Positions 2 through 13,772 of a stretch of DNA of 64,000 nucleotides are shown here, one piece after another. The stretch lies in assembly GCA_050184115.1 (NCBI GenBank), contig JBFXAQ010000001.1, forward strand, positions 1,002,304 to 1,066,303. The letters run 5' to 3'. The position numbers were made by a program, and so were the translations under genes. How positions within the stretch are numbered: the stretch's first letter is position 1; every line of letters begins with the position of its first letter. A model generated the notes under the pieces. That model was not told where the DNA came from and ran no database searches. It was given only the letters and a program-made list of their open reading frames with translations. The stretch comes from Gammaproteobacteria bacterium (GTDB lineage: Bacteria; Pseudomonadota; Gammaproteobacteria; Ga0077536).

Positions 2-709
2 GCCGTGCGTGGTCGTGACGCTGACGATTTCGACCAGGCCAACATTGCGGGGGTGGGGTGTTTCGCCCGCGCCGCGGTCGAGGTCATGTCGCGGCCGCGG
101 GTCGTACTGCTGTCATCGCTCGCCGCGAGCCGCCCCTGCCTCTCCGACTATGCTGCCAGTAAGCGCGCGGGTGAGGATGCACTCACCGCGGGTGCGGGGC
201 TGGAATGGGCGATCCTGCGCCCCCCCGCGGTCTATGGCCCCGGCGACCGCGAGATGCTGCCGCTGTTCACTGCCGTGCGGCACGGGCTGGCGCCGCGACT
301 CGGACCCCGAGGGCAACGCCTTGCGCTCCTGCACGTGGCCGATCTCGTCCGTGCCGTGCGGCTCGTGATCGAGCACTTCGAGGCTTGCCGCGGGCACACG
401 TTCGAGCTCGACGACGGTCATACCAAGGGCTACGACTGGAGCGAAATCGTCGCTCACGCGCGCGGTCGCCTGCCGGTTGCCCTGGTGCCCGTTCCGCGGC
501 TCGTGCTCGCCGCGATCGCGTGGGTCAACCTGCTGCTGGCGCGCGTGTTCGGTTACCTGCCCATGCTCACACCCGGCAAGGTCAACGAGCTTTCCGCTTC
601 CTGTTGGCTCTGCGATAATCAACCGCTCTCCGCGGCGACCGGTTGGCGCCCGCAAATCGCCCTGGGCGACGGCGTGAACGCCATGTTCGCGCCAACCACC
701 CACGAGTAG
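2..709 (+). CDS. NAD(P)-dependent epimerase/dehydratase, CerR-like ceramide reductase (5'-truncated at window edge)
   Basis: Frame open from position 2. Extended-SDR motifs YAASK (YxxxK) and ILRPPAVYGPGD, plus C-terminal PMLTPGKVNEL. Lies directly upstream of acp and spt, as CerR does in the Caulobacter ceramide locus. Confidence 0.75.
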   Translation, partial: AVRGRDADDFDQANIAGVGCFARAAVEVMSRPRVVLLSSLAASRPCLSDYAASKRAGEDALTAGAGLEWAILRPPAVYGPGDREMLPLFTAVRHGLAPRLGPRGQRLALLHVADLVRAVRLVIEHFEACRGHTFELDDGHTKGYDWSEIVAHARGRLPVALVPVPRLVLAAIAWVNLLLARVFGYLPMLTPGKVNELSASCWLCDNQPLSAATGWRPQIALGDGVNAMFAPTTHE

Positions 710-839
710 ACCGAGAGCCTGTGAAAAGAACTTCGCCACCGCTTCTCCCGCTATCGGGCGCCGGCAATGCCAGTAGCAGCGCGGGCGCCCGCGCGCGTCG
801 TCGGGTGTGGTGCCGGTCGGCCGCCGGGCAGACTCCCGC

Positions 840-1091
840 ATGGTGAAGCCGGCGCACGATGCCATCGTCAGGGACCTCGTCACGCTGCTGACGAAAACCC
901 TCGATCGACCGGCCCAGATGACCGCAGACACCGCCCTGATTGGCGATCTCGGACTCGAGTCGATCCAGGTGATCGAATACTTGTGTGAGGTCGAGGATCA
1001 CTTCGACCTCGCCATCGATGAAGACACCCTCGCCGACGTCAATACCGTCGGCGATCTCGCCGCGGTGGTCGCGCGCTTGCTTGCCGGGTGA
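840..1091 (+). CDS. Acyl carrier protein (83 aa), probably dedicated to Spt
   Basis: DLGLESIQVIE phosphopantetheine-serine motif, VEDHFDLAIDE and VNTVGDL; acidic and small. ATG at 840 preferred over the ORF-track start at 807. Confidence 0.9.
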   Translation: MVKPAHDAIVRDLVTLLTKTLDRPAQMTADTALIGDLGLESIQVIEYLCEVEDHFDLAIDEDTLADVNTVGDLAAVVARLLAG

Positions 1092-2553: not shown

Positions 2554-3879
2554 TCATCCGCGCGTGTCGCGCCGCAGCGCGGCCCGCACCACCCACGCCG
2601 TCCCGCTCAGCATCACCAGGGACATCGTCAGCGCCGCGACGCCAGGACCGATGAGTCCCATCGACGGCGTCAACAGCACAAACAAGACGACGTAGAGCAG
2701 GGCCGCCAGCGCCTGCACACGCAGGCTGGCCCCGGCCCGCGAGAGGGTGTAGGCGGCCGGGCGCAGCGGCGCGGCGGCGAGTTCGACGGTGGCGGCGCCG
2801 ACCAGCCACGTCAGCAGTCCCGCGGCGGTGGCGTATTCCGCGCCGACGGTGACGCACAGGATGTCGGCGCCGAGCCAGGCCGCGAGGGCCGTGGCGAGCG
2901 CCGCCGGTAAGGCGAGGACGATGGCGACGGCCAGTGTCAGGCGTCCGAAACCGCGGTCGGCGCGGTGCTGTAAGCGTGCAAGGTCGGGGTAGATGGCCTG
3001 GCGTGCGAGCAGGGCGGGCTTGGCGACGACGTTGCCGAACTCGCGCGCGATGCGGAACAGCGCCGCGGCTTCCGCACCGAGCAGGCCACCCGCCAGGACC
3101 GTGCCCAGCGATTTCGGCACCACGTCGAGCGAGCTCTGCCAGTAGACGACGTGGAGGAAGCTCCAGATCCCGGGGTGGCGAGCGGCGGTGGCCCGCGGCG
3201 ACGCCCGGCCGCGCAGCAGTTCCCCACCGAGGCGGGACAGGGTGACCGACCAGCCGTAGCCCAGCATCATGACGTTCTGCAGAACCTGCGCGAGGGCCCA
3301 GACTGCCGCGATCGCCGGCACGGTGGGCGTGAACACCCAGGCGACCAGCGCCACGCCGACCAGTCGCGCACCGTTGCTCACGACCTGGGTCCGGGCGATC
3401 GCATCGAAGCGATCGAACACGCGCAAGGCGCCGCTCGCCGTACCCTGGCCGGAGGTCAGCAGCAGCAGGCTGTAGGCCATCGCGATCGGCGTGACCTCCG
3501 TCGACCACACACCGCACCAGGCCATCACCGGCGCACCTGCCACGCCGACCAGCGCACCCAGCAGGGCACTGCCGATATCGACCAGGGCGAGTGTGCGCAG
3601 GAGCTGCGCGAGGCCGCCGCGATCGCCATCGTCGTGGAGTGGCACGCCGTAGCGGATCACCGCTTCGAAGGGTTTGACGTTCATGACGCTGCGGATGATC
3701 AGCGTATACGCTTGGATCAGTGCCACTGTGCCGAAGTCGGCCGGGCCGAGCGCACGCGCGCTGAGCAGGGTGGCGGCGAGCGCCAGCACGCCGCCGGCGG
3801 CGCGCCCACCGAGCAGGGTCAGGAAGTTTCGCAACACGTTGCGCCACGCCGGCGTCGGCACGGGGACGGTCGCGTTCAT
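2554..3879 (-). CDS. Wzx/MATE-like flippase (polysaccharide biosynthesis protein family), about 441 aa
   Basis: Many hydrophobic segments; LSARALGPADFGTVAL N-terminal pattern; LLGAEAAALFRIA and IYPDLARL. ATG at 3879 overlaps the upstream stop (ATGA). Confidence 0.8.
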   Translation of the reverse strand: MNATVPVPTPAWRNVLRNFLTLLGGRAAGGVLALAATLLSARALGPADFGTVALIQAYTLIIRSVMNVKPFEAVIRYGVPLHDDGDRGGLAQLLRTLALVDIGSALLGALVGVAGAPVMAWCGVWSTEVTPIAMAYSLLLLTSGQGTASGALRVFDRFDAIARTQVVSNGARLVGVALVAWVFTPTVPAIAAVWALAQVLQNVMMLGYGWSVTLSRLGGELLRGRASPRATAARHPGIWSFLHVVYWQSSLDVVPKSLGTVLAGGLLGAEAAALFRIAREFGNVVAKPALLARQAIYPDLARLQHRADRGFGRLTLAVAIVLALPAALATALAAWLGADILCVTVGAEYATAAGLLTWLVGAATVELAAAPLRPAAYTLSRAGASLRVQALAALLYVVLFVLLTPSMGLIGPGVAALTMSLVMLSGTAWVVRAALRRDTRG

Positions 3880-4748
3880 CGAAATCCACCACGACGATAC
3901 AGGCGCCACAACACCGGCCAGCCGAACAGCAACGGGTGGCGGCGCTGCAGCGCGCTGGCCTCGACGCGTACGCCGCTGTGCCGCTCGACTTTCCACAGGA
4001 TGTAGTCGAGCGGCTCGTTGAAGGTGAAAGCGGCCTTGAACAGGCGGGCGACGGACAGCCACTTGCCGAGCGCGCGGCGCGCCCACCACGCACGCCGCGC
4101 CCGCGCGGGATCGGCCGCGCGGCGGCGCCAGTGCCCGGGCGTGGTTGCCGCGAGGCCGCACTCGGCGGCGAGCGCACCCGTCATGACCTCGAGCGCCGTG
4201 CCGTAGGCCGTCACGAGCTCGGCGCCGCGGGCGGGATCCTCGCTGCGCAACTCACAGCCATAGGTCAGAGTGAAGGCGGATCGCCACAGGTCCGTCGTCG
4301 TGAACGTCTCGCCGAGGAGCGGGACAGTTGCCTCGATCATGCGCCGCGCGGCGCTGCGCGCGGCAGCGTCGAGCCGGGTGCGCACACCATCGTCGCGCAC
4401 ATGCAGCACCATCACGGGTTGGGCGAAGCGCGCCCAGAAATAGGGATGGAAGCCGCGCGCGATGGCGCGTTCGAAGTGGCTCAAGGTGACGGTGGCGAAC
4501 TTCGCCGCTTCCGTACCGATGCCCGGGCCGGCGTGAAGGTGATAGACGTTCGGCGGCAGCAGGCGGTTGGCGATAGCCGCCAGCGGGGCGTGCAAGGCGG
4601 TGTAGTCGTCGAGCAGGACGTAGAAGTCGAGCACCGTGTCGCGCTTGCCACGCAGGTAGGAACCGTAGAGCACGACGGCGAGCACGCCGTCGCCGAAGCG
4701 CTCGCGGAGCAGGGTCGCGAAGCGTTGCGGCGCGTCGTCGTCAGCCAT
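3876..4748 (-). CDS. Nucleotidyltransferase-fold protein, Tam41/Mmp37-like putative (d)NMP-lipid transferase
   Basis: AVVLYGSYLRG...DFYVLLDD (GS plus DxD-type nucleotidyltransferase signature) and WARFAQP. Start overlaps the stop of the CDP-alcohol phosphotransferase by 8 nt. The specific family is inferred. Confidence 0.55.
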   Translation of the reverse strand: MADDDAPQRFATLLRERFGDGVLAVVLYGSYLRGKRDTVLDFYVLLDDYTALHAPLAAIANRLLPPNVYHLHAGPGIGTEAAKFATVTLSHFERAIARGFHPYFWARFAQPVMVLHVRDDGVRTRLDAAARSAARRMIEATVPLLGETFTTTDLWRSAFTLTYGCELRSEDPARGAELVTAYGTALEVMTGALAAECGLAATTPGHWRRRAADPARARRAWWARRALGKWLSVARLFKAAFTFNEPLDYILWKVERHSGVRVEASALQRRHPLLFGWPVLWRLYRRGGFR

Positions 4749-5925
4749 AGGCTTTGCGCGTGCCCGAGAAGCTGGCGTAGGCAGCGGGGTGGCGCGTCGC
4801 GGCATCGGGTTCGCTAAGCCACGATTCGAGGGGTGGTCCACCCAGGCGGACGAGTGCGGCCTGCGCCAGCCGTATGCCCATGATGGCCGTGCTGAGCGCG
4901 GTCCAACCTGCCACCGCGAGCAGGCCGAGGTCGGGACGGCCGACCATGGTCGGCAGGCTGAGCAGCACCAGGCAGGGATTGCGGCGCGCGGTGAACAAGC
5001 GGAAATAGGCGTCGAACGGCCGCCAGGCGAACAGGCTGCAGCGACCGAGGGCGTGGAACAGCGCTTCCAACAGGCGACCGCCGATGTAGCCGCCGACGAT
5101 CACCAGGTGCAGCACGGACAGCTCGATGCCGCCGACCGCCGGCAGACCCAGGCCCAGGCCCCACAACACGTACCAGTACGGTGGGTGGATGATGTCCATG
5201 CCGTGATCGAGGACGTGGCCGAGGGGGCTGCTCTGTACGGTGACACGCGCGAGCTTGCCGTCGACGGTGTCGAGCAGGGTCATGACCCAGCCGCTGAGCA
5301 GTCCTGCGACGTACTGCCCGTGATAGAACCAGGCGCACGAGCACAGCATGAGGACGACGCCGGTCAGGGTCACCATGTTGGGCGTCACGCCGGCCCGCGC
5401 GCACACGCCCACGAGATAGCGTGCCGGCCGCGGCCACCACCACTTGGTGACGAAATCGGTGATGCCCTTGTAGGCATTGCCGTACAGCAGTGATTCGAGT
5501 TCGTCACGGCGCGCGGCAGCGAGCGGTTCGAGCAGCGGTGGTGCGGTTTTGCGCAGGTGGCCGTCGAATGCTTCGAGCGCGGCCGGTTCCAGCAACACCA
5601 CGCCTGCCGGCAGTGTGTCGCTCGCCGGCCAGTTCGCCGCCACCACCTGCGCGGTCGCCGGTTCCAGCAGCGCTGCCGCAACCTGGCCGTCGGCGGGACA
5701 GGCCAGGGCCGCGCCGGGATGCGCGAGCAGGCCCTTGAACGTTCTGACTTCGAACAGGTAATCGGCGTGGATGAGCAGCACCTGGCTGGTGGTCGCGGGC
5801 AGTCTCGCGAGGTCGTCGAGGAGGGTGACACCGAGCCCACGAAGCTGGCGGGCGACACGCTCGCGCGCGTCCAGACCCCACAGTTCCAACGTGTTCGTAC
5901 CGATGATGCAGGCGGCGATCGTCAT
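4741..5925 (-). CDS. CDP-alcohol phosphatidyltransferase family protein with N-terminal soluble domain
   Basis: Complete signature DTVDGKLAR-x8-GHVLDHGMD (DxxDGxxAR...GxxxDxxxD), VTPNMVT, and membrane helices in the C-terminal half. Confidence 0.9.
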   Translation of the reverse strand: MTIAACIIGTNTLELWGLDARERVARQLRGLGVTLLDDLARLPATTSQVLLIHADYLFEVRTFKGLLAHPGAALACPADGQVAAALLEPATAQVVAANWPASDTLPAGVVLLEPAALEAFDGHLRKTAPPLLEPLAAARRDELESLLYGNAYKGITDFVTKWWWPRPARYLVGVCARAGVTPNMVTLTGVVLMLCSCAWFYHGQYVAGLLSGWVMTLLDTVDGKLARVTVQSSPLGHVLDHGMDIIHPPYWYVLWGLGLGLPAVGGIELSVLHLVIVGGYIGGRLLEALFHALGRCSLFAWRPFDAYFRLFTARRNPCLVLLSLPTMVGRPDLGLLAVAGWTALSTAIMGIRLAQAALVRLGGPPLESWLSEPDAATRHPAAYASFSGTRKAYG

Positions 5926-6010: not shown

Positions 6011-6880
6011 ATGCGTTTCGTCCACTTGAGCGATCCCCATCTCAGCAGCCTCGCGGATTACCGTTACGCCGACGTTGCTGGCAAGCGCCGCCTCGGCATG
6101 CTGTCGTGGCATCGCCGCCGCCGCCGTCACCATCTGCGCGAGGTGCTCGACGCCCTGTGCGCCGCCGCGCTCGCCGAGCAGCCGGACCTCGTGCTCGTCA
6201 GCGGTGATTTCGTGCAGCTCGGCCTGGCCGGTGAGATCGCCGAGGCGCGGGCCTGGCTCGATGCCTTTGGTGCGGTGCCCGTGCGCATCGTGCCGGGCAA
6301 CCACGACTTCTACCAGCCGGACGCGCTCGCGCCCGCGTTGGCGGCCTGGGCGCCCTACCTCGGCCTCGCGGCGTCGGCCACGTCGGACGCCTTCCCGACC
6401 TGCCTCGAACGTGGTCCGTTGACGGTCATCGGGCTGTGCTCGGCGCAGCCGATGCCGTGGTGGTCCGCCGGCGGGGCGATCGGTGAGGCCCAGCTGCAAC
6501 GTCTCGACGGTCTGCTCGCGCGCAGTCGCGGCCGCTTGCGTTGCGTGATGCTGCACCACCCGCCGCAACCGGGGCAGTGCGCGCGGCGCAAGGCGCTCGC
6601 CGATGCGCACGTCCTCAGCCTGCTGCTCGAGCGCCACGCCGTTGAACTGGTCGTGCATGGTCACGTGCATCGTAACCGCGCCACCCGCCTCGGTCCGGTC
6701 ACGCGGGTCTTCGCGACAGCCTCCGCCTCCAATGCCGCGAGCCACGCACCCGCGTCCTACCGCGTGTTCGAATGCACGGCGGCGGGCGATGCGCGCTGGC
6801 AACTCGCCATGCGTCTGGTCTCCGTCGACCCCAGCGGCCGGGCGCGCGAAGTCGAGCGCGACAGTTGGACCGCGGGTTGA
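6011..6880 (+). CDS. Calcineurin-like metallophosphoesterase
   Basis: All five metal-binding motifs: SDPH, SGD, GNHD, LHHP, GHVH. No signal peptide evident. Confidence 0.9.
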   Translation: MRFVHLSDPHLSSLADYRYADVAGKRRLGMLSWHRRRRRHHLREVLDALCAAALAEQPDLVLVSGDFVQLGLAGEIAEARAWLDAFGAVPVRIVPGNHDFYQPDALAPALAAWAPYLGLAASATSDAFPTCLERGPLTVIGLCSAQPMPWWSAGGAIGEAQLQRLDGLLARSRGRLRCVMLHHPPQPGQCARRKALADAHVLSLLLERHAVELVVHGHVHRNRATRLGPVTRVFATASASNAASHAPASYRVFECTAAGDARWQLAMRLVSVDPSGRAREVERDSWTAG

Positions 6881-7939
6881 TCAGCCGAGACGTCGGATCG
6901 CGAGCACCGCCGCCGCCATCACCAGTATGGATGGCATGAGTGCTGTCAGCGCCGGGTCGAGCTGAAACAGCAGCGCGAGCTGCCCGGTGATGCGTTCGGC
7001 CAGGTAGAAGCCGATACCGATGACGCCGCCGACGACCGCGCGCAGCCCGGTCGAACGCGCGCGCACAGTCCCGGCAACCAGCGGCAGCCCGAGCAAGGCC
7101 ATGCCGAGCAGCGTCAGGGGCAGGCTCGCTTGTTGCCAGAAGCGCACCTCGTGCTCGCGGGTGTCGAGGCCCGCCCCGGCTGTTTCGTGCAGGTAGCGGT
7201 AGAGGTCGATCGGCGACAGGGCATGCGTCGGGCTGACCAGGGTCGAGATCTGATCGGGCGACAGGAAGCTCGCCCAGCGCAAGGTCTCGAGGTGACGGCC
7301 CGACACGGTCTCGCCGTCGATGATCCGTTCCTCGACGTCGTGCAACAACCAGGTGTGCGCGCCGAGGATGTCGGCGCGCACGGCAAGCAGCACGCGCGCG
7401 AGATGGTTGGCCTTGTCGACTTCGTAGATCTCGATGTCCGACGGGATGCGTCCGAACGCGACCTCGCCGACGCGAATGATGCGCTGGTCGCGCCGGCTCC
7501 AGAACTCCGCCCCGCCACGCGCCGTCTGTTCGAGCGTACGGGCGCGAAATTCCTGTGCCTGTCGTTCTGCCAGCGGGATGACGATGAACTGCAGGGTCAG
7601 GGCGAGCGCGACAAGGCCGCCGGCGATGGCGGCCAGGATGCCCCCGAGACGCCATCCCGACAGGCCGGCGGCCCGGATCGCCGTGAGCTCCTGGTGATTG
7701 GCGAGCAGGCCGAGCCCGAGCACCGAGCCGAGCAGCGTGCTGACGGGCAGCAGGTCGAGCAGGCGCGCCGGCGTCGTCAGGAGCATTACGGCGATGGCGT
7801 CGGCGGTGGTGAACGCGCCTTTGCCGACGTCCTCCAGTGCCTCGGCCAGGGCCAGGAAACTGAACAGGCTGAGCAGGATGGCCAGCGCGATGCCGGCGGC
7901 CTTGAGAAAATGCGCGGCAACGTAACGGGCAATCAGCAT
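6881..7939 (-). CDS. LptG-like (YjgP/YjgQ family) ABC permease paralogue
   Basis: MLIARYVAAHF start, PARLLDLLP, LANHQELTAIRAAGLS, a periplasmic beta-rich region, LSPIDLYRY and FWQQASLP. Start overlaps the lptF-like stop (TGATG). Confidence 0.85.
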   Translation of the reverse strand: MLIARYVAAHFLKAAGIALAILLSLFSFLALAEALEDVGKGAFTTADAIAVMLLTTPARLLDLLPVSTLLGSVLGLGLLANHQELTAIRAAGLSGWRLGGILAAIAGGLVALALTLQFIVIPLAERQAQEFRARTLEQTARGGAEFWSRRDQRIIRVGEVAFGRIPSDIEIYEVDKANHLARVLLAVRADILGAHTWLLHDVEERIIDGETVSGRHLETLRWASFLSPDQISTLVSPTHALSPIDLYRYLHETAGAGLDTREHEVRFWQQASLPLTLLGMALLGLPLVAGTVRARSTGLRAVVGGVIGIGFYLAERITGQLALLFQLDPALTALMPSILVMAAAVLAIRRLG

Positions 7940-8997
7940 CAGCGCAGACCGCCGCGTGCGCGTCGCCACCACGAGCCTAGAACGAGGGCGGCCGCCAGCA
8001 GGGCCGGCGCCCACCACAGGCCCGCCACCACCTGCTGTTCGACCCAGGTCCGATTGACGCCGAGCAGGTTGTAGTAGACCGCGTAGATGGCGACCGCCAG
8101 CGGCAGCCGCGCGAAGCGGCTCTCGCGTGGACGCTGATCGACCAGCATCAGCGCACAGGCAGCGAGCAACAGCGTCGACAAAGGCGTCGACAGGCGCCAG
8201 TGCAACTCGGCGCGATCGTCGTCATCGGGCGAGCCCAACAGTTGCAGCGTGGCGGCCGACTTGGTGCGATATTCGCGGTCGATAGGCCGTGTGGCGTCGA
8301 GCGACAAGGTCAGCTCGGCGAAGCGACCGAGCAGGTCGGGTGGGGCGTTGGCGACGAGAAACACGCTGGCCTCGTGCAGTATCAGGCGATGGGTGAGTGG
8401 TGTGGCGAAGGCGTCGAGCGTGGCGCGTGGGGCCGTGATGAGTTCGATGCCTTCAGACCCGCGGGTGCGAATGAACACGCCGCGCAGGGCGCCGCCATCA
8501 GCGCCGATGTGTTCGACGTAGACTGTACGAGCATCGTCTTCGTAGAGGTAGAAGCGCTGAGGCTTGATGCGATCGAGTTCGGATGCGCTCTCGGCTCGAT
8601 CCTTGAGCGCGAACAGGCGCTCGTAGGCCCACGGCCGGGCTTGCAGCGAGAGCACTGCGACCAGCGTCGCGAGCAGCGTACCGAGCAGCAGCAAGGGCCG
8701 GTGCAGGCGGCGGCGCGGTATGCCGCAGGCGCGCATGACGACCAGTTCGTTGTGCAGGTTGAGCCGCCCGCAACCGACGATGATGCCGAAGTAGAACGCC
8801 AGCGGCAGCAGGACTTCCAGCGCGATCACGGCCTTGTAGCCGGTCAGCTGCATGACCTCGGCAGCGTCGAGGAGCCCGCTGGCGGCGTCGGTGAGAAAGC
8901 GGGCCAGGTTGTAGGCGAGAAAGATCACCGTCAGTATGATGGCGACCGTCGCGGTGCTCGCGCCGATTTCGCGCATCAGGTATCGATCGATCAACAC
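7939..8997 (-). CDS. LptF-like (YjgP/YjgQ family) ABC permease paralogue
   Basis: GTG start giving (M)LIDRYLMREI; RLNLHNELVVMRACGI; AELHWRLSTPL; RPRESRF. Confidence 0.85.
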   Translation of the reverse strand: MLIDRYLMREIGASTATVAIILTVIFLAYNLARFLTDAASGLLDAAEVMQLTGYKAVIALEVLLPLAFYFGIIVGCGRLNLHNELVVMRACGIPRRRLHRPLLLLGTLLATLVAVLSLQARPWAYERLFALKDRAESASELDRIKPQRFYLYEDDARTVYVEHIGADGGALRGVFIRTRGSEGIELITAPRATLDAFATPLTHRLILHEASVFLVANAPPDLLGRFAELTLSLDATRPIDREYRTKSAATLQLLGSPDDDDRAELHWRLSTPLSTLLLAACALMLVDQRPRESRFARLPLAVAIYAVYYNLLGVNRTWVEQQVVAGLWWAPALLAAALVLGSWWRRARGGLR

Positions 8998-9030
8998 GGC
9001 AGAATGGCTGGCGATGAGGTGAGGGAGCCC

Positions 9031-9564
9031 GTGGGCAAAGCGTCCTATGATGGTCAGCGCACCCGTGCGGCGCAACTGCATGCGCGCCTCGTGCTGGCGC
9101 TCGTCGCGGCCCTGCTCGCACCGCGCGCCGGCGCCGCGGAGGCCGAGCCACCGCTGCGCGTGCGCGACGATACCGTGTTCATCCGCGCTCAACAGGCACG
9201 TCAGGCCGACGACGCATCAAGCCTGACCGTGAGCGGCGGGCTGTTCATGCGCAGCGGCGCGTGGACGGTGACCGCCGACCATGCCGTCATCAGCGGCCGC
9301 CTGCGCGACCCCGCGCGCATCGATGTCACCGGCGCGCCGGCGCGCATCCACGTCCAGGAAGGCGACGACGCCGAGGCATTCGAAGGCCAGAGCCAGCGTC
9401 TCGAGTTCGAACCGCGCGCCGAGGTCGTGCGCCTCGAGGGCGCGGCGCGCGTCGTCAAGGGCGGGCGCTCGGTCAGCAGCGAATCGATCAAGTACCTGCT
9501 CGATCGCGATACCTTTGCTGCCGGCACCGGCGGTCGCGTGCGGGTGGTGACGACGCCGCATTGA
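9031..9564 (+). CDS. LptA/OstA-like periplasmic beta-jellyroll protein
   Basis: C-terminal part of track ORF 8200..9564. GTG at 9031 follows a GAGG-GAG ribosome-binding sequence. Signal-peptide-like RLVLALVAALLAPRAGA; typical ITAD-like TVTADHAVI, LEGAARVVKGGRSVSSESIKYLLDRD and GRVRVV. Start is uncertain because it is only 33 nt from the divergent lptF-like start. Confidence 0.7.
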   Translation: MGKASYDGQRTRAAQLHARLVLALVAALLAPRAGAAEAEPPLRVRDDTVFIRAQQARQADDASSLTVSGGLFMRSGAWTVTADHAVISGRLRDPARIDVTGAPARIHVQEGDDAEAFEGQSQRLEFEPRAEVVRLEGAARVVKGGRSVSSESIKYLLDRDTFAAGTGGRVRVVTTPH

Positions 9565-9579: not shown

Positions 9580-10338
9580 TCAGTTCGTGGCCGGTGTGCG
9601 TTGCCGCGCTGGTGGACACCAGCCGGCGACGATGCCGGCCGCGCGCTCGAGATCGGCGCGGTCGTCGATCTCGCCCCAACTGAGGCCGTCGATGGCGCAG
9701 GTGGTGACGATGTCCTCGCCTGCCAGGGTGTCGATTGCCGACAGGTACCACTGCTTGAGCCCACTGCCGTGGCGCATCATGAATTCGACCTGTTCGCGGA
9801 AGCGCTGCGCGCCATGGGCGTCGAAGTGCATCATGCCGATGGATTCGCCGGTGACGCGCTTGACGTCGAGTTGCTTGCCGACGCGGCGCAGGCGGCCATC
9901 CGCGACCACGACTTTCATGTCGTCCGCGTCGTAGCTCGGCTTGCTGTCGGTCACTAGCGTGATCGGCGCGCGCGCGCGGTCGTCGAGCAGGCGCTGCAGG
10001 ATCGCGGCCTCGAACAGCGTGTCGCCGTTGATGATGACGAAAGGCGCGGTCATCTCGTGGCGCGCGACCCAGCAGGTGCCGAGGTTGTCGCAGGCGGCGA
10101 AGAAGGGGTTGTAGAGCGCGCGGGCCGGTACGTCGTGCTGGCCCGCGACGATGGCATCGACGTAGTCGGCCCCGAAACCGGTCACCACCACCACCTCGTC
10201 GACCGCGCACTGGGCGATTTCGTGCAACTGCCATTCCAGCACCGCCCGTGCGCCCACCGCGAGCGCGGCCTTGGGGCGTTGTTCGGTCAAGGGCAATAGC
10301 CGCCGGCCCTGGCCGGCACTCAGGATGATTGCTTTCAT
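9580..10338 (-). CDS. Sugar-phosphate/phosphocholine-type cytidylyltransferase (NTP_transferase family)
   Basis: MKAIILSAGQGRRLLPLTEQRPK, INGDTLF, GESIG and WGEIDDRADL; LicC-like. In this locus it probably activates a head group. Confidence 0.8.
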   Translation of the reverse strand: MKAIILSAGQGRRLLPLTEQRPKAALAVGARAVLEWQLHEIAQCAVDEVVVVTGFGADYVDAIVAGQHDVPARALYNPFFAACDNLGTCWVARHEMTAPFVIINGDTLFEAAILQRLLDDRARAPITLVTDSKPSYDADDMKVVVADGRLRRVGKQLDVKRVTGESIGMMHFDAHGAQRFREQVEFMMRHGSGLKQWYLSAIDTLAGEDIVTTCAIDGLSWGEIDDRADLERAAGIVAGWCPPARQRTPATN

Positions 10339-10432
10339 GGTGGGGGACGGATTCCGCGAAAAAGCCGGCCCGGTGGCGCGGCGCGCGCGACTCTAACACG
10401 TTCGCGCGGGCGGTTCGACAGGTGGCGGTGAG

Positions 10433-11185
10433 TCACCGGCGCGCGGCGACCCGGCGGTTCCAGGCGGCGAGATTCTTCAGTGGGTCCTTGACGTAATGCG
10501 TCGCCTGCATGAGGCGCAGGATGCCGGCGTTGAACCAGGTGCCGACGGTGTCCATGGGGCGGTCGATGTCGATGAACAGTACGGCGCGGTACTCGGGCGT
10601 ATCGTTGCGCACCTCGTGTTCGTAGGTATCGTCGAAGATCACCGCCTCGCCTTCCCGCCAGTGGTAGATCTCGTCGTCGACGCGGATCCAGCAATGCTCG
10701 CGGTCGGCCGGGACGCGCAAGCCGAGGTGGCAACGGACCAGCGCGCGGGTCGGGCCGCGATGGGGCGGAATGTGATAGCCGGGCGCGAGGATCGAGAACC
10801 ACGCATTGAGCAGGCGCGGCAGGCTGGCGAGCAGGGCGGCGGTCTGGGGGCAGGCCGCGCAATTCTGCGCTACCGGCTGGCCGAAGATATAGAGCGCATA
10901 CGTCTTCCAGTGATCGCCCTTGGAGATCCGGTATTGGTCGGGCGAGATCTGGTGGAAGGCCGGGATGTCCTCGGGGTGAGTCCAGACCTGGTCGAACTCG
11001 CGACGTACACCCGGCCATGCCGCTTCGAGGCGCGGGACCCAGTCGAAGGTGTCGTTGGGCAGGACCGGGGCGGTGCCGATGAGCGAGTGGCGAGCCTGGA
11101 AATCGGTCACGGCGCGCAGGAACTGCTTGCCGGCGCGGTGAACCAGCGCGCGGCGCCAGCGGTAGAAAGCGGACGTGTCAGTCAT
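10433..11185 (-). CDS. Aspartyl/asparaginyl beta-hydroxylase family Fe(II)/2-oxoglutarate dioxygenase (LpxO-related)
   Basis: FSILAPGYHIPPHRGP, RCHLGL and FDDTYEHEVRN motifs. ATG at 11185 overlaps the upstream stop by 8 nt. Confidence 0.85.
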   Translation of the reverse strand: MTDTSAFYRWRRALVHRAGKQFLRAVTDFQARHSLIGTAPVLPNDTFDWVPRLEAAWPGVRREFDQVWTHPEDIPAFHQISPDQYRISKGDHWKTYALYIFGQPVAQNCAACPQTAALLASLPRLLNAWFSILAPGYHIPPHRGPTRALVRCHLGLRVPADREHCWIRVDDEIYHWREGEAVIFDDTYEHEVRNDTPEYRAVLFIDIDRPMDTVGTWFNAGILRLMQATHYVKDPLKNLAAWNRRVAARR

Positions 11186-11969
11186 GCGCCAGGATCCTCT
11201 CGGCAAGCGCGTGGTCGGCGGCCGAGTCGACGTCGACCGCGGCACGGGGTTCATCGATCGTGATGGCGGCGATCGCGGCGCCGGCGCGCGCCGACAGGCG
11301 GGCCAGGGCCTGCGCGCGGTCGAGGCGTCCGCCGAGGTAGCGCAGCAGGGTGCCGAAGCCGATCCCGTGCGCGATTCGCCAGGGTCGCTTGCGTTCGCGT
11401 TCGAGCGTGCGCCAGTAGGCGAGTGCGGTGAGCGCCCGCGGCGTGCGCAGCAGGAACAGGTTCGACCCGCAGCAGGCACCGTCGGCGAAGCGCAACAGGG
11501 TCCGTTGCGATTCCGGCCACGCCGCGTGGACGCGCGACCAGGGCACGAGGCCGATGACGACGTCCGCTGTGACCGCGGCCGCGCGCGTACAGAAGTCGTC
11601 GACGATGGCCGGGGTCAGCAGGGCGTGGTCGCCGGCGGTGAGCAACAGGGGAAAGCATTCGAGCGCGCTGGCGCCGACCATGGCGCTGGCCGAGGGACCG
11701 TCGGCGGGCGCCAGCCAGCGGTAATCGCCGGCCTCGAGCAGGCCACGCAGGCCGGCGTCGCCGGCGACGATGGCCGCCGCCGGCCCGACCACCACGCCGC
11801 CGGCGACGTGACGACTGGCGCGCAGCGCATCGAGCACCCTGGCCAGGCAGCTGCGGCCATGAACTTCCACCAGCACGCCGGCCGGCAGACCGTGGCTGCG
11901 CGCGAGTGCGTTACCGCCGGGACGCTCGCCGGCCAGGACCACCGCCCGCACCGATGGCGCGGCGCTCAT
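11178..11969 (-). CDS. MobA-like NTP transferase domain protein
   Basis: C-terminal part of track ORF 11178..13118: AVVLAGERPGG, LLTAGDHALL, GSNLF and AAVDVDSAADH. Confidence 0.75.
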   Translation of the reverse strand: MSAAPSVRAVVLAGERPGGNALARSHGLPAGVLVEVHGRSCLARVLDALRASRHVAGGVVVGPAAAIVAGDAGLRGLLEAGDYRWLAPADGPSASAMVGASALECFPLLLTAGDHALLTPAIVDDFCTRAAAVTADVVIGLVPWSRVHAAWPESQRTLLRFADGACCGSNLFLLRTPRALTALAYWRTLERERKRPWRIAHGIGFGTLLRYLGGRLDRAQALARLSARAGAAIAAITIDEPRAAVDVDSAADHALAERILAHD

Positions 11970-12055: not shown

Positions 12056-13198
12056 TCAGCCCAGGCTCTTGTCGTAGACCCGGTAGCGCTTGGTGACGTG
12101 GCCGCCGAGGGTCTCGATGATGTTCTTCATGGCCTCGTTCGATTCGAGGATCCACGACATCTCGACCTCTTCGAGGCCCTTGCGCAGGCCGGGGGCGCGC
12201 AGCGCCTCGACCACCGAGAGCGCGAGACCGGGTCCGTAGCGGGTGTTGTGCAGGCGGCGGCGCACACCCATCAGCGGGATGCGCGCGCTGCGCGGGTAAC
12301 CGAACTTGAGTCGCCGCAGGAGCTTGAGCCAGCCGCCGGGCCACAGTCGGCCGTCGAGATCGGCGATGCACTCGTTGACGTTCGGCAGCAGCACGATGAA
12401 GGCCACCGGTTCGCCCTTCATCTCCGCGATCTGGATGAAGTCGGGCGGGATGATCATCAGCATCTCGTGACCGATGGTGCGGAATTCGTGCGCGGTGAAT
12501 GGGACGAAGCCCCAGTTGTCGGCCCAGGCGTCGTTGAAGATGTCGCGCAGGATGTCGAGGTCGGCATCCTTGCGCCGCGGGTCCAGCGGGCGGATGGTGA
12601 CGTCGCGCTGCAGGCGTGCGTAGAGCGATCGCATCACCGGCGGCGGCTGGAAATCGGCCGGGATGAGGTAAGCGAACATGTCGGCGGCCTTGGTGTAGCC
12701 GAGCGTTTCGAGCGCCGGCCCGTAGAAGGGGCGCGCATGGGTCATCATGAAATACGGCGGCGTGTCGAAGCCCTCGACCAGCAGCCCCACTTCCTGGTTG
12801 ATGTTGAAGCCGAACGGTCCGCGCACGCGGCGCAAGCCGCGCGCGCGCAACCAATCCTCGGCGCTGCGTGTCAGCACGCCCAATACTTCGGCGTCGATAC
12901 CCTCGATGAAGCCGAAGAAACCGGTGTCGTCGGTGTGGCGTTCGAGGTGCAGGCGATCGACCTGGGCGGTGATGCGGCCGACCGCGCGGCCGTCGCGGTA
13001 GGCGACCCAGCCCTGCCAGTCGAGGTGCTCGAAGACCGGCTGCTTGGGTGCCAGGACCTCCTTCCGCTCCAGCAGCAGCGGCGGTACCCAGTGGGGATCG
13101 TCGCCGTAGATGGCCCACGGCACGCGCACGAAATCGTCGCGGGTACGGCGGTTGTCGACCGGGTGGAGGATGAGTCCGCCCGCGCGGTTCTGGGTCAT
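12056..13198 (-). CDS. GNAT-fold N-acyltransferase, bacterial ceramide synthase (bCerS)-like
   Basis: PWAIYGDDPHWVPPL, GFFGFIE, GLLVEGFDTPPYFMMTH, FNDAWADNWGFVPFT and EMSWILESN...KRYRVYDK match my recollection of the bCerS family. About 380 aa and in the spt locus. Confidence 0.8.
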   Translation of the reverse strand: MTQNRAGGLILHPVDNRRTRDDFVRVPWAIYGDDPHWVPPLLLERKEVLAPKQPVFEHLDWQGWVAYRDGRAVGRITAQVDRLHLERHTDDTGFFGFIEGIDAEVLGVLTRSAEDWLRARGLRRVRGPFGFNINQEVGLLVEGFDTPPYFMMTHARPFYGPALETLGYTKAADMFAYLIPADFQPPPVMRSLYARLQRDVTIRPLDPRRKDADLDILRDIFNDAWADNWGFVPFTAHEFRTIGHEMLMIIPPDFIQIAEMKGEPVAFIVLLPNVNECIADLDGRLWPGGWLKLLRRLKFGYPRSARIPLMGVRRRLHNTRYGPGLALSVVEALRAPGLRKGLEEVEMSWILESNEAMKNIIETLGGHVTKRYRVYDKSLG

Positions 13199-13325: not shown

Positions 13326-13772
13326 ATGAAGCCGAAAGTTGCGCAGGAATACGTCCAGGTGCAGGACCTCGAGTGGCAACCGTTCCCGGACGCCTTCTCC
13401 GAAGGTGGTATCCGCTGGAAGCTGCTGCACGTGTCGCCCGAGATGGGTGCGTGGACGGCTATCTTCGATTGCCCGGCGGGCTCGTCGTTCGCGCGGCACA
13501 TCCACGTAGGCCCTGGCGAGTACCTGCTGACCAAGGGCAAGATGGAGGTGCGCGGCGGTGTCGACGAGGGCGGCGCGACGGCGCTGGCGATGGGTTACGG
13601 CTACGAGTCCTGCAACGCCCGTCACGACAAGACCTACTTCCCCGTGCCGAGCGAGTTCTACATGACCTTCCTCGGCCCGCTGCAGTTCATCAACGAAGAC
13701 GGCAGCCCGGTAGCCGTGGTCGGCTGGGAACAGGCCCAGGACCTGTGGTCGGCACAAATCGGGGCGGCTTGA
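13326..13772 (+). CDS. dke1: Acetylacetone-cleaving beta-diketone dioxygenase (cupin)
   Basis: PFPDAFSEGGIRW, WTAIFDCPAGSSFARHIHVGPGEYLLTKGKMEVRGG and FYMTFLGPL closely resemble Acinetobacter Dke1 as I recall it. Three-His metal site (HIH plus RHD). Confidence 0.8.
   Translation: MKPKVAQEYVQVQDLEWQPFPDAFSEGGIRWKLLHVSPEMGAWTAIFDCPAGSSFARHIHVGPGEYLLTKGKMEVRGGVDEGGATALAMGYGYESCNARHDKTYFPVPSEFYMTFLGPLQFINEDGSPVAVVGWEQAQDLWSAQIGAA

Follow-up and report, generated by a model that had tools for sequence, protein, structure and literature searches.

A gene for a predicted Fe(II)/2-oxoglutarate (2OG) hydroxylase of 250 amino acids (aa) was analysed at positions 10433-11185(-) of the window, which is the whole stretch of 64,000 nucleotides (nt) studied here (assembly GCA_050184115.1, contig JBFXAQ010000001.1, positions 1,002,304 to 1,066,303). 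The source is a gammaproteobacterial genome of 5.7 Mb, 99% complete, from an uncultured lineage of metagenome-assembled genomes (MAGs). The locus was found to contain a gene set of the Caulobacter crescentus CC_1152-CC_1168 type, with the hydroxylase gene inserted between the CC_1153-like and the CC_1152-like genes (Table 1). In Caulobacter crescentus, CC_1152-CC_1168 form the phosphosphingolipid cluster, in which CC_1154 is the ceramide synthase, CC_1152 and CC_1153 are nucleotidyltransferases that convert the head group from CPG to CPG2, CC_1155/CC_1156 are LptG2/LptF2, CC_1158 is a phosphoesterase and CC_1159 is a CDP-alcohol transferase (PMC11324152); LptF2/G2 of Caulobacter were also treated in bioRxiv 10.64898/2026.04.12.717747. 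The hydroxylase gene is an accessory member of a phosphosphingolipid operon of the Caulobacter type, located downstream of the bacterial ceramide synthase (bCerS) gene and upstream of the LptF2/G2 genes, and its product is considered here as a candidate ceramide hydroxylase.

The open reading frame (ORF) of the hydroxylase starts at the ATG at 11185, and its GC content at the three codon positions (0.67/0.47/0.87) follows the usual coding pattern of this locus, the GC content of the window being ~69%. The MobA-like frame was found to end with CAT GAC TGA and the hydroxylase frame to start with ATG ACT GAC, which are read together as ATGACTGA and form an 8-nt stop/start overlap; a Shine-Dalgarno-like GAGAGGA is present 9 nt upstream of the hydroxylase start. 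The overlap and the motif agree with the original prediction, which was made from the sequence before this analysis and had proposed translational coupling to the MobA-like gene downstream of bCerS. The stop codon is followed after 94 nt by the second nucleotidyltransferase gene, and no terminator-like or promoter-like (sigma-70-like) sites were predicted between window positions 9000 and 14000. A longer frame of 348 aa from the GTG at 11479 was rejected, as its added part has a non-coding GC pattern (0.59/0.89/0.74) and overlies the end of the MobA-like gene in another frame, and as the homologues share the methionine of the ATG at 11185. The plus-strand and other-frame ORFs across 10335-11263 were dropped on the GC content of their third codon positions.

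The hydroxylase matched the Pfam profile PF05118 (Asp_Arg_Hydrox) over its full length (profile positions 1-157 of 157) with 174.5 bits against a cut-off of 22.6, and the LpxO/AspH-family dioxygenase that had been read from the sequence at this position was thus recovered. Among the NCBIfam models, the OlsC model NF052565 was ranked first with 212.3 bits, which is under its cut-off of 450, followed by 125.1 bits for the LpxO model NF033391, which is under its cut-off of 500. By these profile scores, the hydroxylase is a member of the family but an equivalog of neither OlsC nor LpxO, and is nearer OlsC; the original comparison with LpxO is to be replaced by one with OlsC as the nearest characterised relative. 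The identity of the hydroxylase was found to be 40% to a true OlsC equivalog (L085) and ~32% to LpxO.

OlsC of Rhizobium tropici, which 2-hydroxylates the ester-linked acyl chain of ornithine lipid, is like the hydroxylase in its Pfam domain, its length of ~250-260 aa, the lack of a transmembrane helix and the H/H/R residues, whereas the hydroxylase reaches less than half of the OlsC cut-off, OlsC lies outside its clade, and the OlsC loci have no sphingolipid neighbours. LpxO of Salmonella and Pseudomonas, which 2-hydroxylates the secondary acyl chain of lipid A, shares the Fe2+/O2/2-oxoglutarate family and acts at C-2 of a lipid-bound acyl chain (PMC12971839), whereas it is an integral membrane protein of ~300 aa with a C-terminal hydrophobic helix that the hydroxylase lacks. 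OlsD of Burkholderia cenocepacia, which acts on ornithine lipid, belongs to the same family and hydroxylates the amide-linked acyl chain, the geometry expected for ceramide (PMC12971839), whereas its substrate is an aminolipid; OlsD was compared by its published description. LpxO, OlsC and OlsD were all reported to 2-hydroxylate acyl chains that are already attached to a lipid (PMC12971839).

A phmmer search of the PDB sequences with the hydroxylase matched only human AspH (1e-22). The residues H142, H190, R200 and S131 were aligned to the AspH motifs HxxPH, EHEV, R-x-(I/V)-x-F and (Y/F)S-I, respectively, and the corresponding iron ligands of AspH are H679 and H725 and its 2OG contacts R735 and S668. 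The alignment predicts that the hydroxylase binds iron through H142 and H190 and contacts 2OG through R200 and S131. All four residues were found to be invariant in an alignment of 49 sequences, and H142, H190 and R200 were kept in all five groups compared, namely the clade of the hydroxylase, the Sphingomonadaceae group, a group of 228 aa, true LpxO and true OlsC. Flanking S131 and H142, W129 and Y137 are two of the residues that the clade conserves and that differ in OlsC and LpxO, and they are candidate determinants of specificity.

The AlphaFold model of the hydroxylase on the same alignment (pLDDT 93.8, pTM 0.89) was found to contain an N-terminal helix (residues 6-33), a double-stranded beta-helix core and C-terminal helices at residues 213-227 and 230-249. 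The top 11 Foldseek matches of the model in the PDB were all AspH oxygenase domains (E ~1e-15, TM-score 0.61). The oxygenase domain of human AspH, which is the closest solved structure, shares with the hydroxylase an unusual iron site of two histidines without a carboxylate and the 2OG-binding Arg and Ser, whereas the substrates of AspH are proteins with EGF domains and AspH has a TPR domain and a membrane anchor in addition, the hydroxylase being a bare catalytic domain with amphipathic terminal helices.

No transmembrane helix was found in the hydroxylase. Its best 19-residue Kyte-Doolittle mean was 1.42, in a core segment that is aligned to the AspH catalytic domain, whereas the true LpxO sequences were found to contain a C-terminal hydrophobic helix (19-residue mean 1.3-2.1) that is absent from the hydroxylase; the earlier remark that the protein differs from LpxO in having no obvious membrane helices was therefore upheld. 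The N-terminal helix contains 7 Lys/Arg residues and 1 acidic residue and has the highest hydrophobic moment of the protein (0.67 over 18 residues), and this basic amphipathic helix may act as a peripheral membrane anchor. As the N-terminus is without the hydrophobic core of a signal peptide, the hydroxylase should work in the cytoplasm.

The linkage to sphingolipid genes was scored in the 80 closest species-level homologous loci (45-93% identity; gamma- and alphaproteobacterial MAGs account for nearly all of them) by tblastn of the cluster proteins of the window against flanks within 10 kb. At least one sphingolipid cluster gene was found in the flanks of 64 of the 80 loci, and serine palmitoyltransferase (Spt) or bCerS in 48. 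When only the 49 loci with flanks of 8 kb or more on each side were counted, cluster genes were found in 40 and Spt or bCerS in 35. The original prediction had staked itself beforehand on the enrichment of homologues near spt, and the counts over the 80 loci are in its favour. No cluster gene was found in reach at 16 of the 80 loci, several of which lie on short contigs.

The gene order of the window (bCerS, MobA-like gene, hydroxylase, nucleotidyltransferase and Lpt genes) was found in loci L001-L015, and the same order with an insert of ~1.6 kb after the hydroxylase was present in, for example, L020, L026 and L033. A mini-cluster of bCerS, MobA-like gene, hydroxylase and nucleotidyltransferase was found in L029-L032 and L038-L042. 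The loci L058, L061, L066 and L068 were found to contain LptF2, LptG2 and the hydroxylase followed by the gene of the 321-aa protein, the acyl carrier protein (ACP) and CerR on the opposite strand, and in L051, L069 and L071 the hydroxylase was followed by the gene of the 321-aa protein, the phosphoesterase, LptG2 and LptF2. Looser arrangements were found in the Alphaproteobacteria (L070, L072-L079). Linkage that is kept through several gene orders usually points to a common pathway. The insert of ~1.6 kb, which holds at least one gene between the hydroxylase and the CC_1152-like gene, was observed in many Pseudomonadales MAGs (including L020, L022, L026-L028 and L033-L036), the distance in the window lineage being 94 nt.

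A full-length bCerS homologue (46-54% identity) was found elsewhere in the genome in all five tested genomes with an unlinked copy; the neighbours of the unlinked copies were DUF2855, PAPS reductase, EPSP synthase, EamA and MFS genes, which gave no clue to a lipid. Twenty outlying homologues (at most 41% identity) were fetched and 10 of them were classified with NCBIfam, by which L085 (genome G377) was found to be a true OlsC (513.6 bits) and L094 and L096 were found to be true LpxO (502 and 540 bits). No sphingolipid genes were found near the outlying homologues, true OlsC included, in 11 loci with ~10-kb flanks, and no bCerS was found in G377. The earlier proposal of an alternative Fe/2OG ceramide hydroxylase is thus supported, as a candidate, by the linkage, by bCerS in the five unlinked-copy genomes and by the lack of sphingolipid genes near the outliers.

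As background, 400 evenly sampled Pseudomonadota genomes were examined. A full-length bCerS homologue was found in 31 of them, including all four Sphingomonadaceae genomes tested, and AspH-family matches in 65, and no match had more than 41% identity to the hydroxylase, so that no close orthologue was present in this sample. Outside the Sphingomonadaceae, the clade was found almost solely in lineages represented by MAGs. Other AspH-domain matches, with frames of ~370-450 aa and 70-97 bits against the query, were observed in the bCerS genomes G044, G320, G371, G380 and G383 (families f49 and f51), and these longer frames may form a second AspH-type subfamily in sphingolipid producers.

The phylogeny was examined with a quick tree of 101 sequences and an IQ-TREE tree of 69 sequences (LG+C20+F+G4). 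Both trees agreed in placing the linked copies, the unlinked copies from bCerS genomes and the f49 group in one clade (UFBoot 93, SH-aLRT 79). LpxO formed a separate clade with 100/100 support, and true OlsC was found on a separate long branch outside the sphingolipid-associated clade in both trees, where L086 (genome G168) pairs tightly with L085. A second scan with an f49 member identified the tight f49 sister group as Sphingomonadaceae, and the group was found in many cultured species of Sphingomonas, Stakelama, Hephaestia and Sphingosinithalassobacter, among them S. elodea ATCC 31461 (L189) and S. melonis (L120). The glycosphingolipids of Sphingomonas contain amide-linked 2-hydroxymyristate, which is a classical chemotaxonomic marker; if this is right, the predicted chemistry exists in organisms that carry the sister group.

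The four Sphingomonadaceae genomes with the sister subclade that were tested all contained bCerS, and LpxC was found in none of the four. No PF13444 (OlsB/OlsF-type) gene was found in three of these four genomes, the GH3-type OlsH route not having been searched. As these genomes contain bCerS, lack LpxC and mostly lack PF13444, a sphingolipid is the only plausible substrate class of the family that is left in them. Of five complete Pseudomonadales chromosomes that carry a clade member, four were found to have no PF13444 gene and the fifth gave a marginal match, OlsH again not being part of the search. In many Gamma- and Alphaproteobacteria, the Sphingomonadaceae among them, the N-acyl 2-hydroxylase of sphingolipids may be an enzyme of this soluble OlsC-like Fe/2OG clade as a whole, a generalisation that is offered tentatively, its chance of being right lying a little short of even.

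The substrate could also be thought to be other than a lipid, either an Asp/Asn residue of a protein as in AspH or a small molecule, with the gene hitch-hiking in lipid loci. The nearest solved structures are those of a protein hydroxylase, and one member at the edge of the clade was found in a genome without detected bCerS. The linkage to sphingolipid genes is conserved over many lineages and several gene orders, bCerS was found in all of the core-clade genomes that were tested, and no TPR or other protein-recognition domain was found in the hydroxylase, which together make a non-lipid substrate very unlikely.

It is fairly probable that the hydroxylase is a cytoplasmic Fe(II)/2OG/O2-dependent lipid hydroxylase that is dedicated to the sphingolipid of this operon, with the role of an N-acyl 2-hydroxylase; we infer its substrate, the hydroxylated position, its membrane association and the timing. 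The protein would dock on the inner leaflet of the inner membrane through its basic amphipathic helices and would 2-hydroxylate ceramide, or one of its precursors, on the amide-linked acyl chain, with iron bound at the 2-His site H142/H190 and 2-oxoglutarate held by R200. The C-2 of the attached acyl chain is proposed because of the analogy with LpxO, OlsC and OlsD, the last of which acts on an amide-linked chain. The candidate precursors would be 3-keto ceramide from bCerS or ceramide phosphate, the former because CerR of Caulobacter was reported to be periplasmic. The hydroxylation would take place ahead of the completion of the head group and of export by LptF2/G2. By sequence, the ceramide acyl chain, acyl-ACP and the head group are inseparable as substrates.

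The hydroxylase would fill the role of the unlinked di-iron protein CC_0202 by a different chemistry. CC_0202/CCNA_00202 of Caulobacter crescentus shares the proposed role (hydroxy-ceramide and hydroxy-CPG) and the cluster type, and it is credited with hydroxylating sphingolipids on their amide-linked acyl chain (PMC11324152, with reference to Stankeviciute et al. 2022). It is a membrane di-iron protein of the DesA family, of unrelated fold and cofactor, that is unlinked to the cluster, whereas the hydroxylase is predicted to be a soluble enzyme of the 2-His Fe/2OG type and is embedded in it. The statement of the original prediction that the characterised sphingolipid hydroxylase is of the di-iron type is in line with CC_0202, which is described as DesA-type (PMC11324152). 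In Caulobacter, the hydroxylated and non-hydroxylated lipid forms coexist, the loss of the sphingolipid hydroxyl leads to polymyxin resistance and the hydroxyl is needed for the polymyxin sensitivity conferred by the anionic sphingolipid (PMC11324152).

A hydroxylase of the sphingolipid pathway that acts elsewhere than at C-2 of the N-acyl chain was also considered, the alternatives being C-4 of the long-chain base (phytoceramide-type), the acyl donor before bCerS, or a glycerate-type or other head group. The linkage evidence is equal for this reading, the gene is wedged between two nucleotidyltransferase genes whose Caulobacter counterparts act on the head group, and AspH hydroxylates the beta carbon of a polar residue. 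It is nevertheless unlikely, as LpxO, OlsC and OlsD all act on C-2 of a lipid-attached acyl chain (PMC12971839), as other lineages place the hydroxylase beside LptG2, the 321-aa gene or bCerS and not beside the nucleotidyltransferases, and as the extra hydroxyl of the Caulobacter sphingolipids is on the lipid portion, presumably on the acyl chain (PMC11324152).

The reading of the hydroxylase as a dedicated sphingolipid N-acyl 2-hydroxylase was also weighed against its own genome, where several findings count against it. Another contig was found to carry a gene for a 616-aa OlsF-like aminolipid synthase (NF052615, cut-off 620, score 389 bits), and LpxC is present, so that the genome makes lipid A; both classical substrates of the family may therefore occur in this organism. 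The attempt to rule out ornithine lipid and lipid A through absent substrate genes failed, as both the OlsF-like gene and LpxC were found. The hydroxylase is the only PF05118 gene of the genome, which speaks for the reading; 7 FA_desaturase (PF00487), 2 FA_hydroxylase (PF04116) and 22 P450 genes were found besides it, any of which could hydroxylate ceramide, and the attempt to rule out other hydroxylases in the genome failed on their account. Other points on the same side come from the comparisons. The support of the sphingolipid-associated clade is only moderate (93/79), and the related genomes are non-independent, so that the counts of linkage and co-occurrence overstate their statistical weight. 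Most of the bCerS-containing genomes in the sample of 400 lack a clade member and the gene is thus accessory; this patchy presence fits an optional decoration and weakens the generality of the reading. A long-branch member at the edge of the clade (L089) comes from the 2.8-Mb gammaproteobacterial genome G274, which contains LpxC and in which bCerS was looked for and not found; this member either breaks the co-occurrence or has changed its substrate. A periplasmic CerR would also blur which intermediate a cytoplasmic hydroxylase meets.

The OlsF-like gene bears on the reading that the hydroxylase is a functional OlsC, which acts on the ester-linked chain of an ornithine-type or acyloxyacyl aminolipid made by the OlsF-like enzyme and which owes its place in the operon to the co-regulation of outer-membrane lipids. 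This would agree with the best NCBIfam model (OlsC, 212 bits), with the 40% identity to a true equivalog, with the lack of a transmembrane helix as in OlsC and with the presence of the 616-aa gene in the same genome. The score is far under the 450-bit cut-off, true OlsC falls outside the clade and the tested true-OlsC genome is without bCerS. No OlsF-like gene was found within 10 kb in any of the 80 homologous loci, and the absence of PF13444 from four of the five Pseudomonadales and three of the four Sphingomonadaceae genomes bearing the clade, within a search that left out the OlsH route, likewise argues against it. The OlsF-like gene was moreover found to have an OlsE-like hydroxylase gene upstream of it, and the reading as a functional OlsC is quite improbable. 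This OlsE-like di-iron hydroxylase (NF052566, 305 bits, below the cut-off) lies ~1 kb upstream of the OlsF-like gene on contig C6 at ~150.7-154.5 kb (L110:1120-2043, L082:454-2304), and the pair is, from its profile matches, a probable locus for a hydroxylated ornithine-type aminolipid. The aminolipid genes are thus accompanied by a hydroxylase gene of their own, and the OlsC-like gene is found in the sphingolipid operon instead.

The presence of LpxC, together with the shared family (125 bits) and the LptF/LptG-type genes of the operon, would allow an LpxO-like hydroxylase of the secondary acyl chain of lipid A, which is placed beside Lpt paralogues since both lipids share the outer leaflet. 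The 125 bits stand against a cut-off of 500, the C-terminal membrane helix is absent, LpxO forms a separate and fully supported clade, the Sphingomonadaceae genomes with the sister subclade are without LpxC, and the Lpt genes of the operon are LptF2/G2 paralogues of the sphingolipid type known from Caulobacter. A role in lipid A is accordingly hardly to be expected.

In a search of the literature, which included the papers on the Caulobacter cluster and a survey of marine sphingolipids, no paper was found to give enzymes of the LpxO/OlsC/AspH type a role in bacterial sphingolipids, and in the literature searched only the di-iron DesA-type enzyme was reported as a bacterial ceramide acyl hydroxylase. 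The hydroxylase probably represents a type of bacterial ceramide hydroxylase that has yet to be described, as far as its sequence and its locus indicate, and it is plausible that a known family of lipid hydroxylases works here on a new class of lipid in the place of a non-homologous enzyme. Membrane di-iron fatty acid 2-hydroxylases (FA2H, Scs7 and Fah of eukaryotes and myxobacteria) provide another route to the 2-hydroxy acyl chains of sphingolipids, and P450SPalpha (CYP152B1) of Sphingomonas, a haem peroxygenase that acts on free fatty acids, provides another route to 2-hydroxy acyl chains; both belong to enzyme families unrelated to the hydroxylase. If the reading as a sphingolipid N-acyl 2-hydroxylase is true, the Fe/2OG enzyme would add a third, convergent route to hydroxy-ceramides to those of the di-iron and P450 enzymes and would be a case of convergent enzyme recruitment, and the LpxO/OlsC/OlsD family would reach a fourth class of outer-membrane lipid. 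The clade would then account for the 2-hydroxymyristate in the glycosphingolipids of Sphingomonas, whose source has so far been genetically undefined, and it would provide a simple genomic marker for hydroxylated sphingolipids in uncultured Gammaproteobacteria. Acyl hydroxylation alters the packing and binding of sphingolipids, and their decoration would be tied to the supply of oxygen, iron and 2-oxoglutarate. The cultured Sphingomonas with the sister subclade offer a tractable test system.

Table 1. Genes of the sphingolipid locus, with positions and strands in the window
Feature	Position	Strand	Remarks
CerR-like epimerase/dehydratase-family reductase, C-terminal part, cut by the window edge	2-709	+	PF01370
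Dedicated acyl carrier protein	777-1091	+	PF00550, ACP models
Serine palmitoyltransferase (Spt)	1194-2552 (open frame)	+	NCBIfam NF047599 equivalog, 576.6 bits against 500; profile match from residue 54
Wzx-like flippase	2554-4161	-	
321-aa protein, no Pfam or NCBIfam match	3876-4841	-	
CDP-alcohol phosphatidyltransferase-domain protein, CC_1159-like head-group enzyme	4741-5925	-	
Calcineurin-like phosphoesterase, CC_1158-like	6011-6880	+	
LptG2 paralogue, presumed sphingolipid export permease	6881-8017	-	
LptF2 paralogue, presumed sphingolipid export permease	7939-9192	-	
Second nucleotidyltransferase (NTP transferase), CC_1152-like	9580-10338	-	
OlsC/LpxO-family Fe(II)/2-oxoglutarate hydroxylase, 250 aa, predicted soluble	10433-11185	-	
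MobA-like NTP transferase, CC_1153 counterpart	11178-11930	-	True start perhaps slightly upstream, near 11969
bCerS-like GNAT acyltransferase at the head of the minus-strand operon, candidate bacterial ceramide synthase	12056-13198	-	Weak GNAT match, conserved beside the hydroxylase

None of the genes of the window was recognised as a CC_1160-like ceramide kinase gene. In the 394-aa CDP-alcohol transferase protein, the domain was found to span only residues 181-246, the N-terminal ~170 residues being unmatched. The wealth of oxygenase genes in the 5.7-Mb genome (22 P450 and 7 desaturase-family genes) is suggestive of hydrocarbon or lipid oxidation. A gene for a ChrR-type cupin was found at 13326-13772(+) (PF12973, 105 bits), divergent from bCerS. 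It is present beside bCerS at 82-97% identity in the 14 closest loci (L001-L014) except L006 and L009, which is far above the conservation of its neighbours, and it may be co-regulated with the lipid operon.

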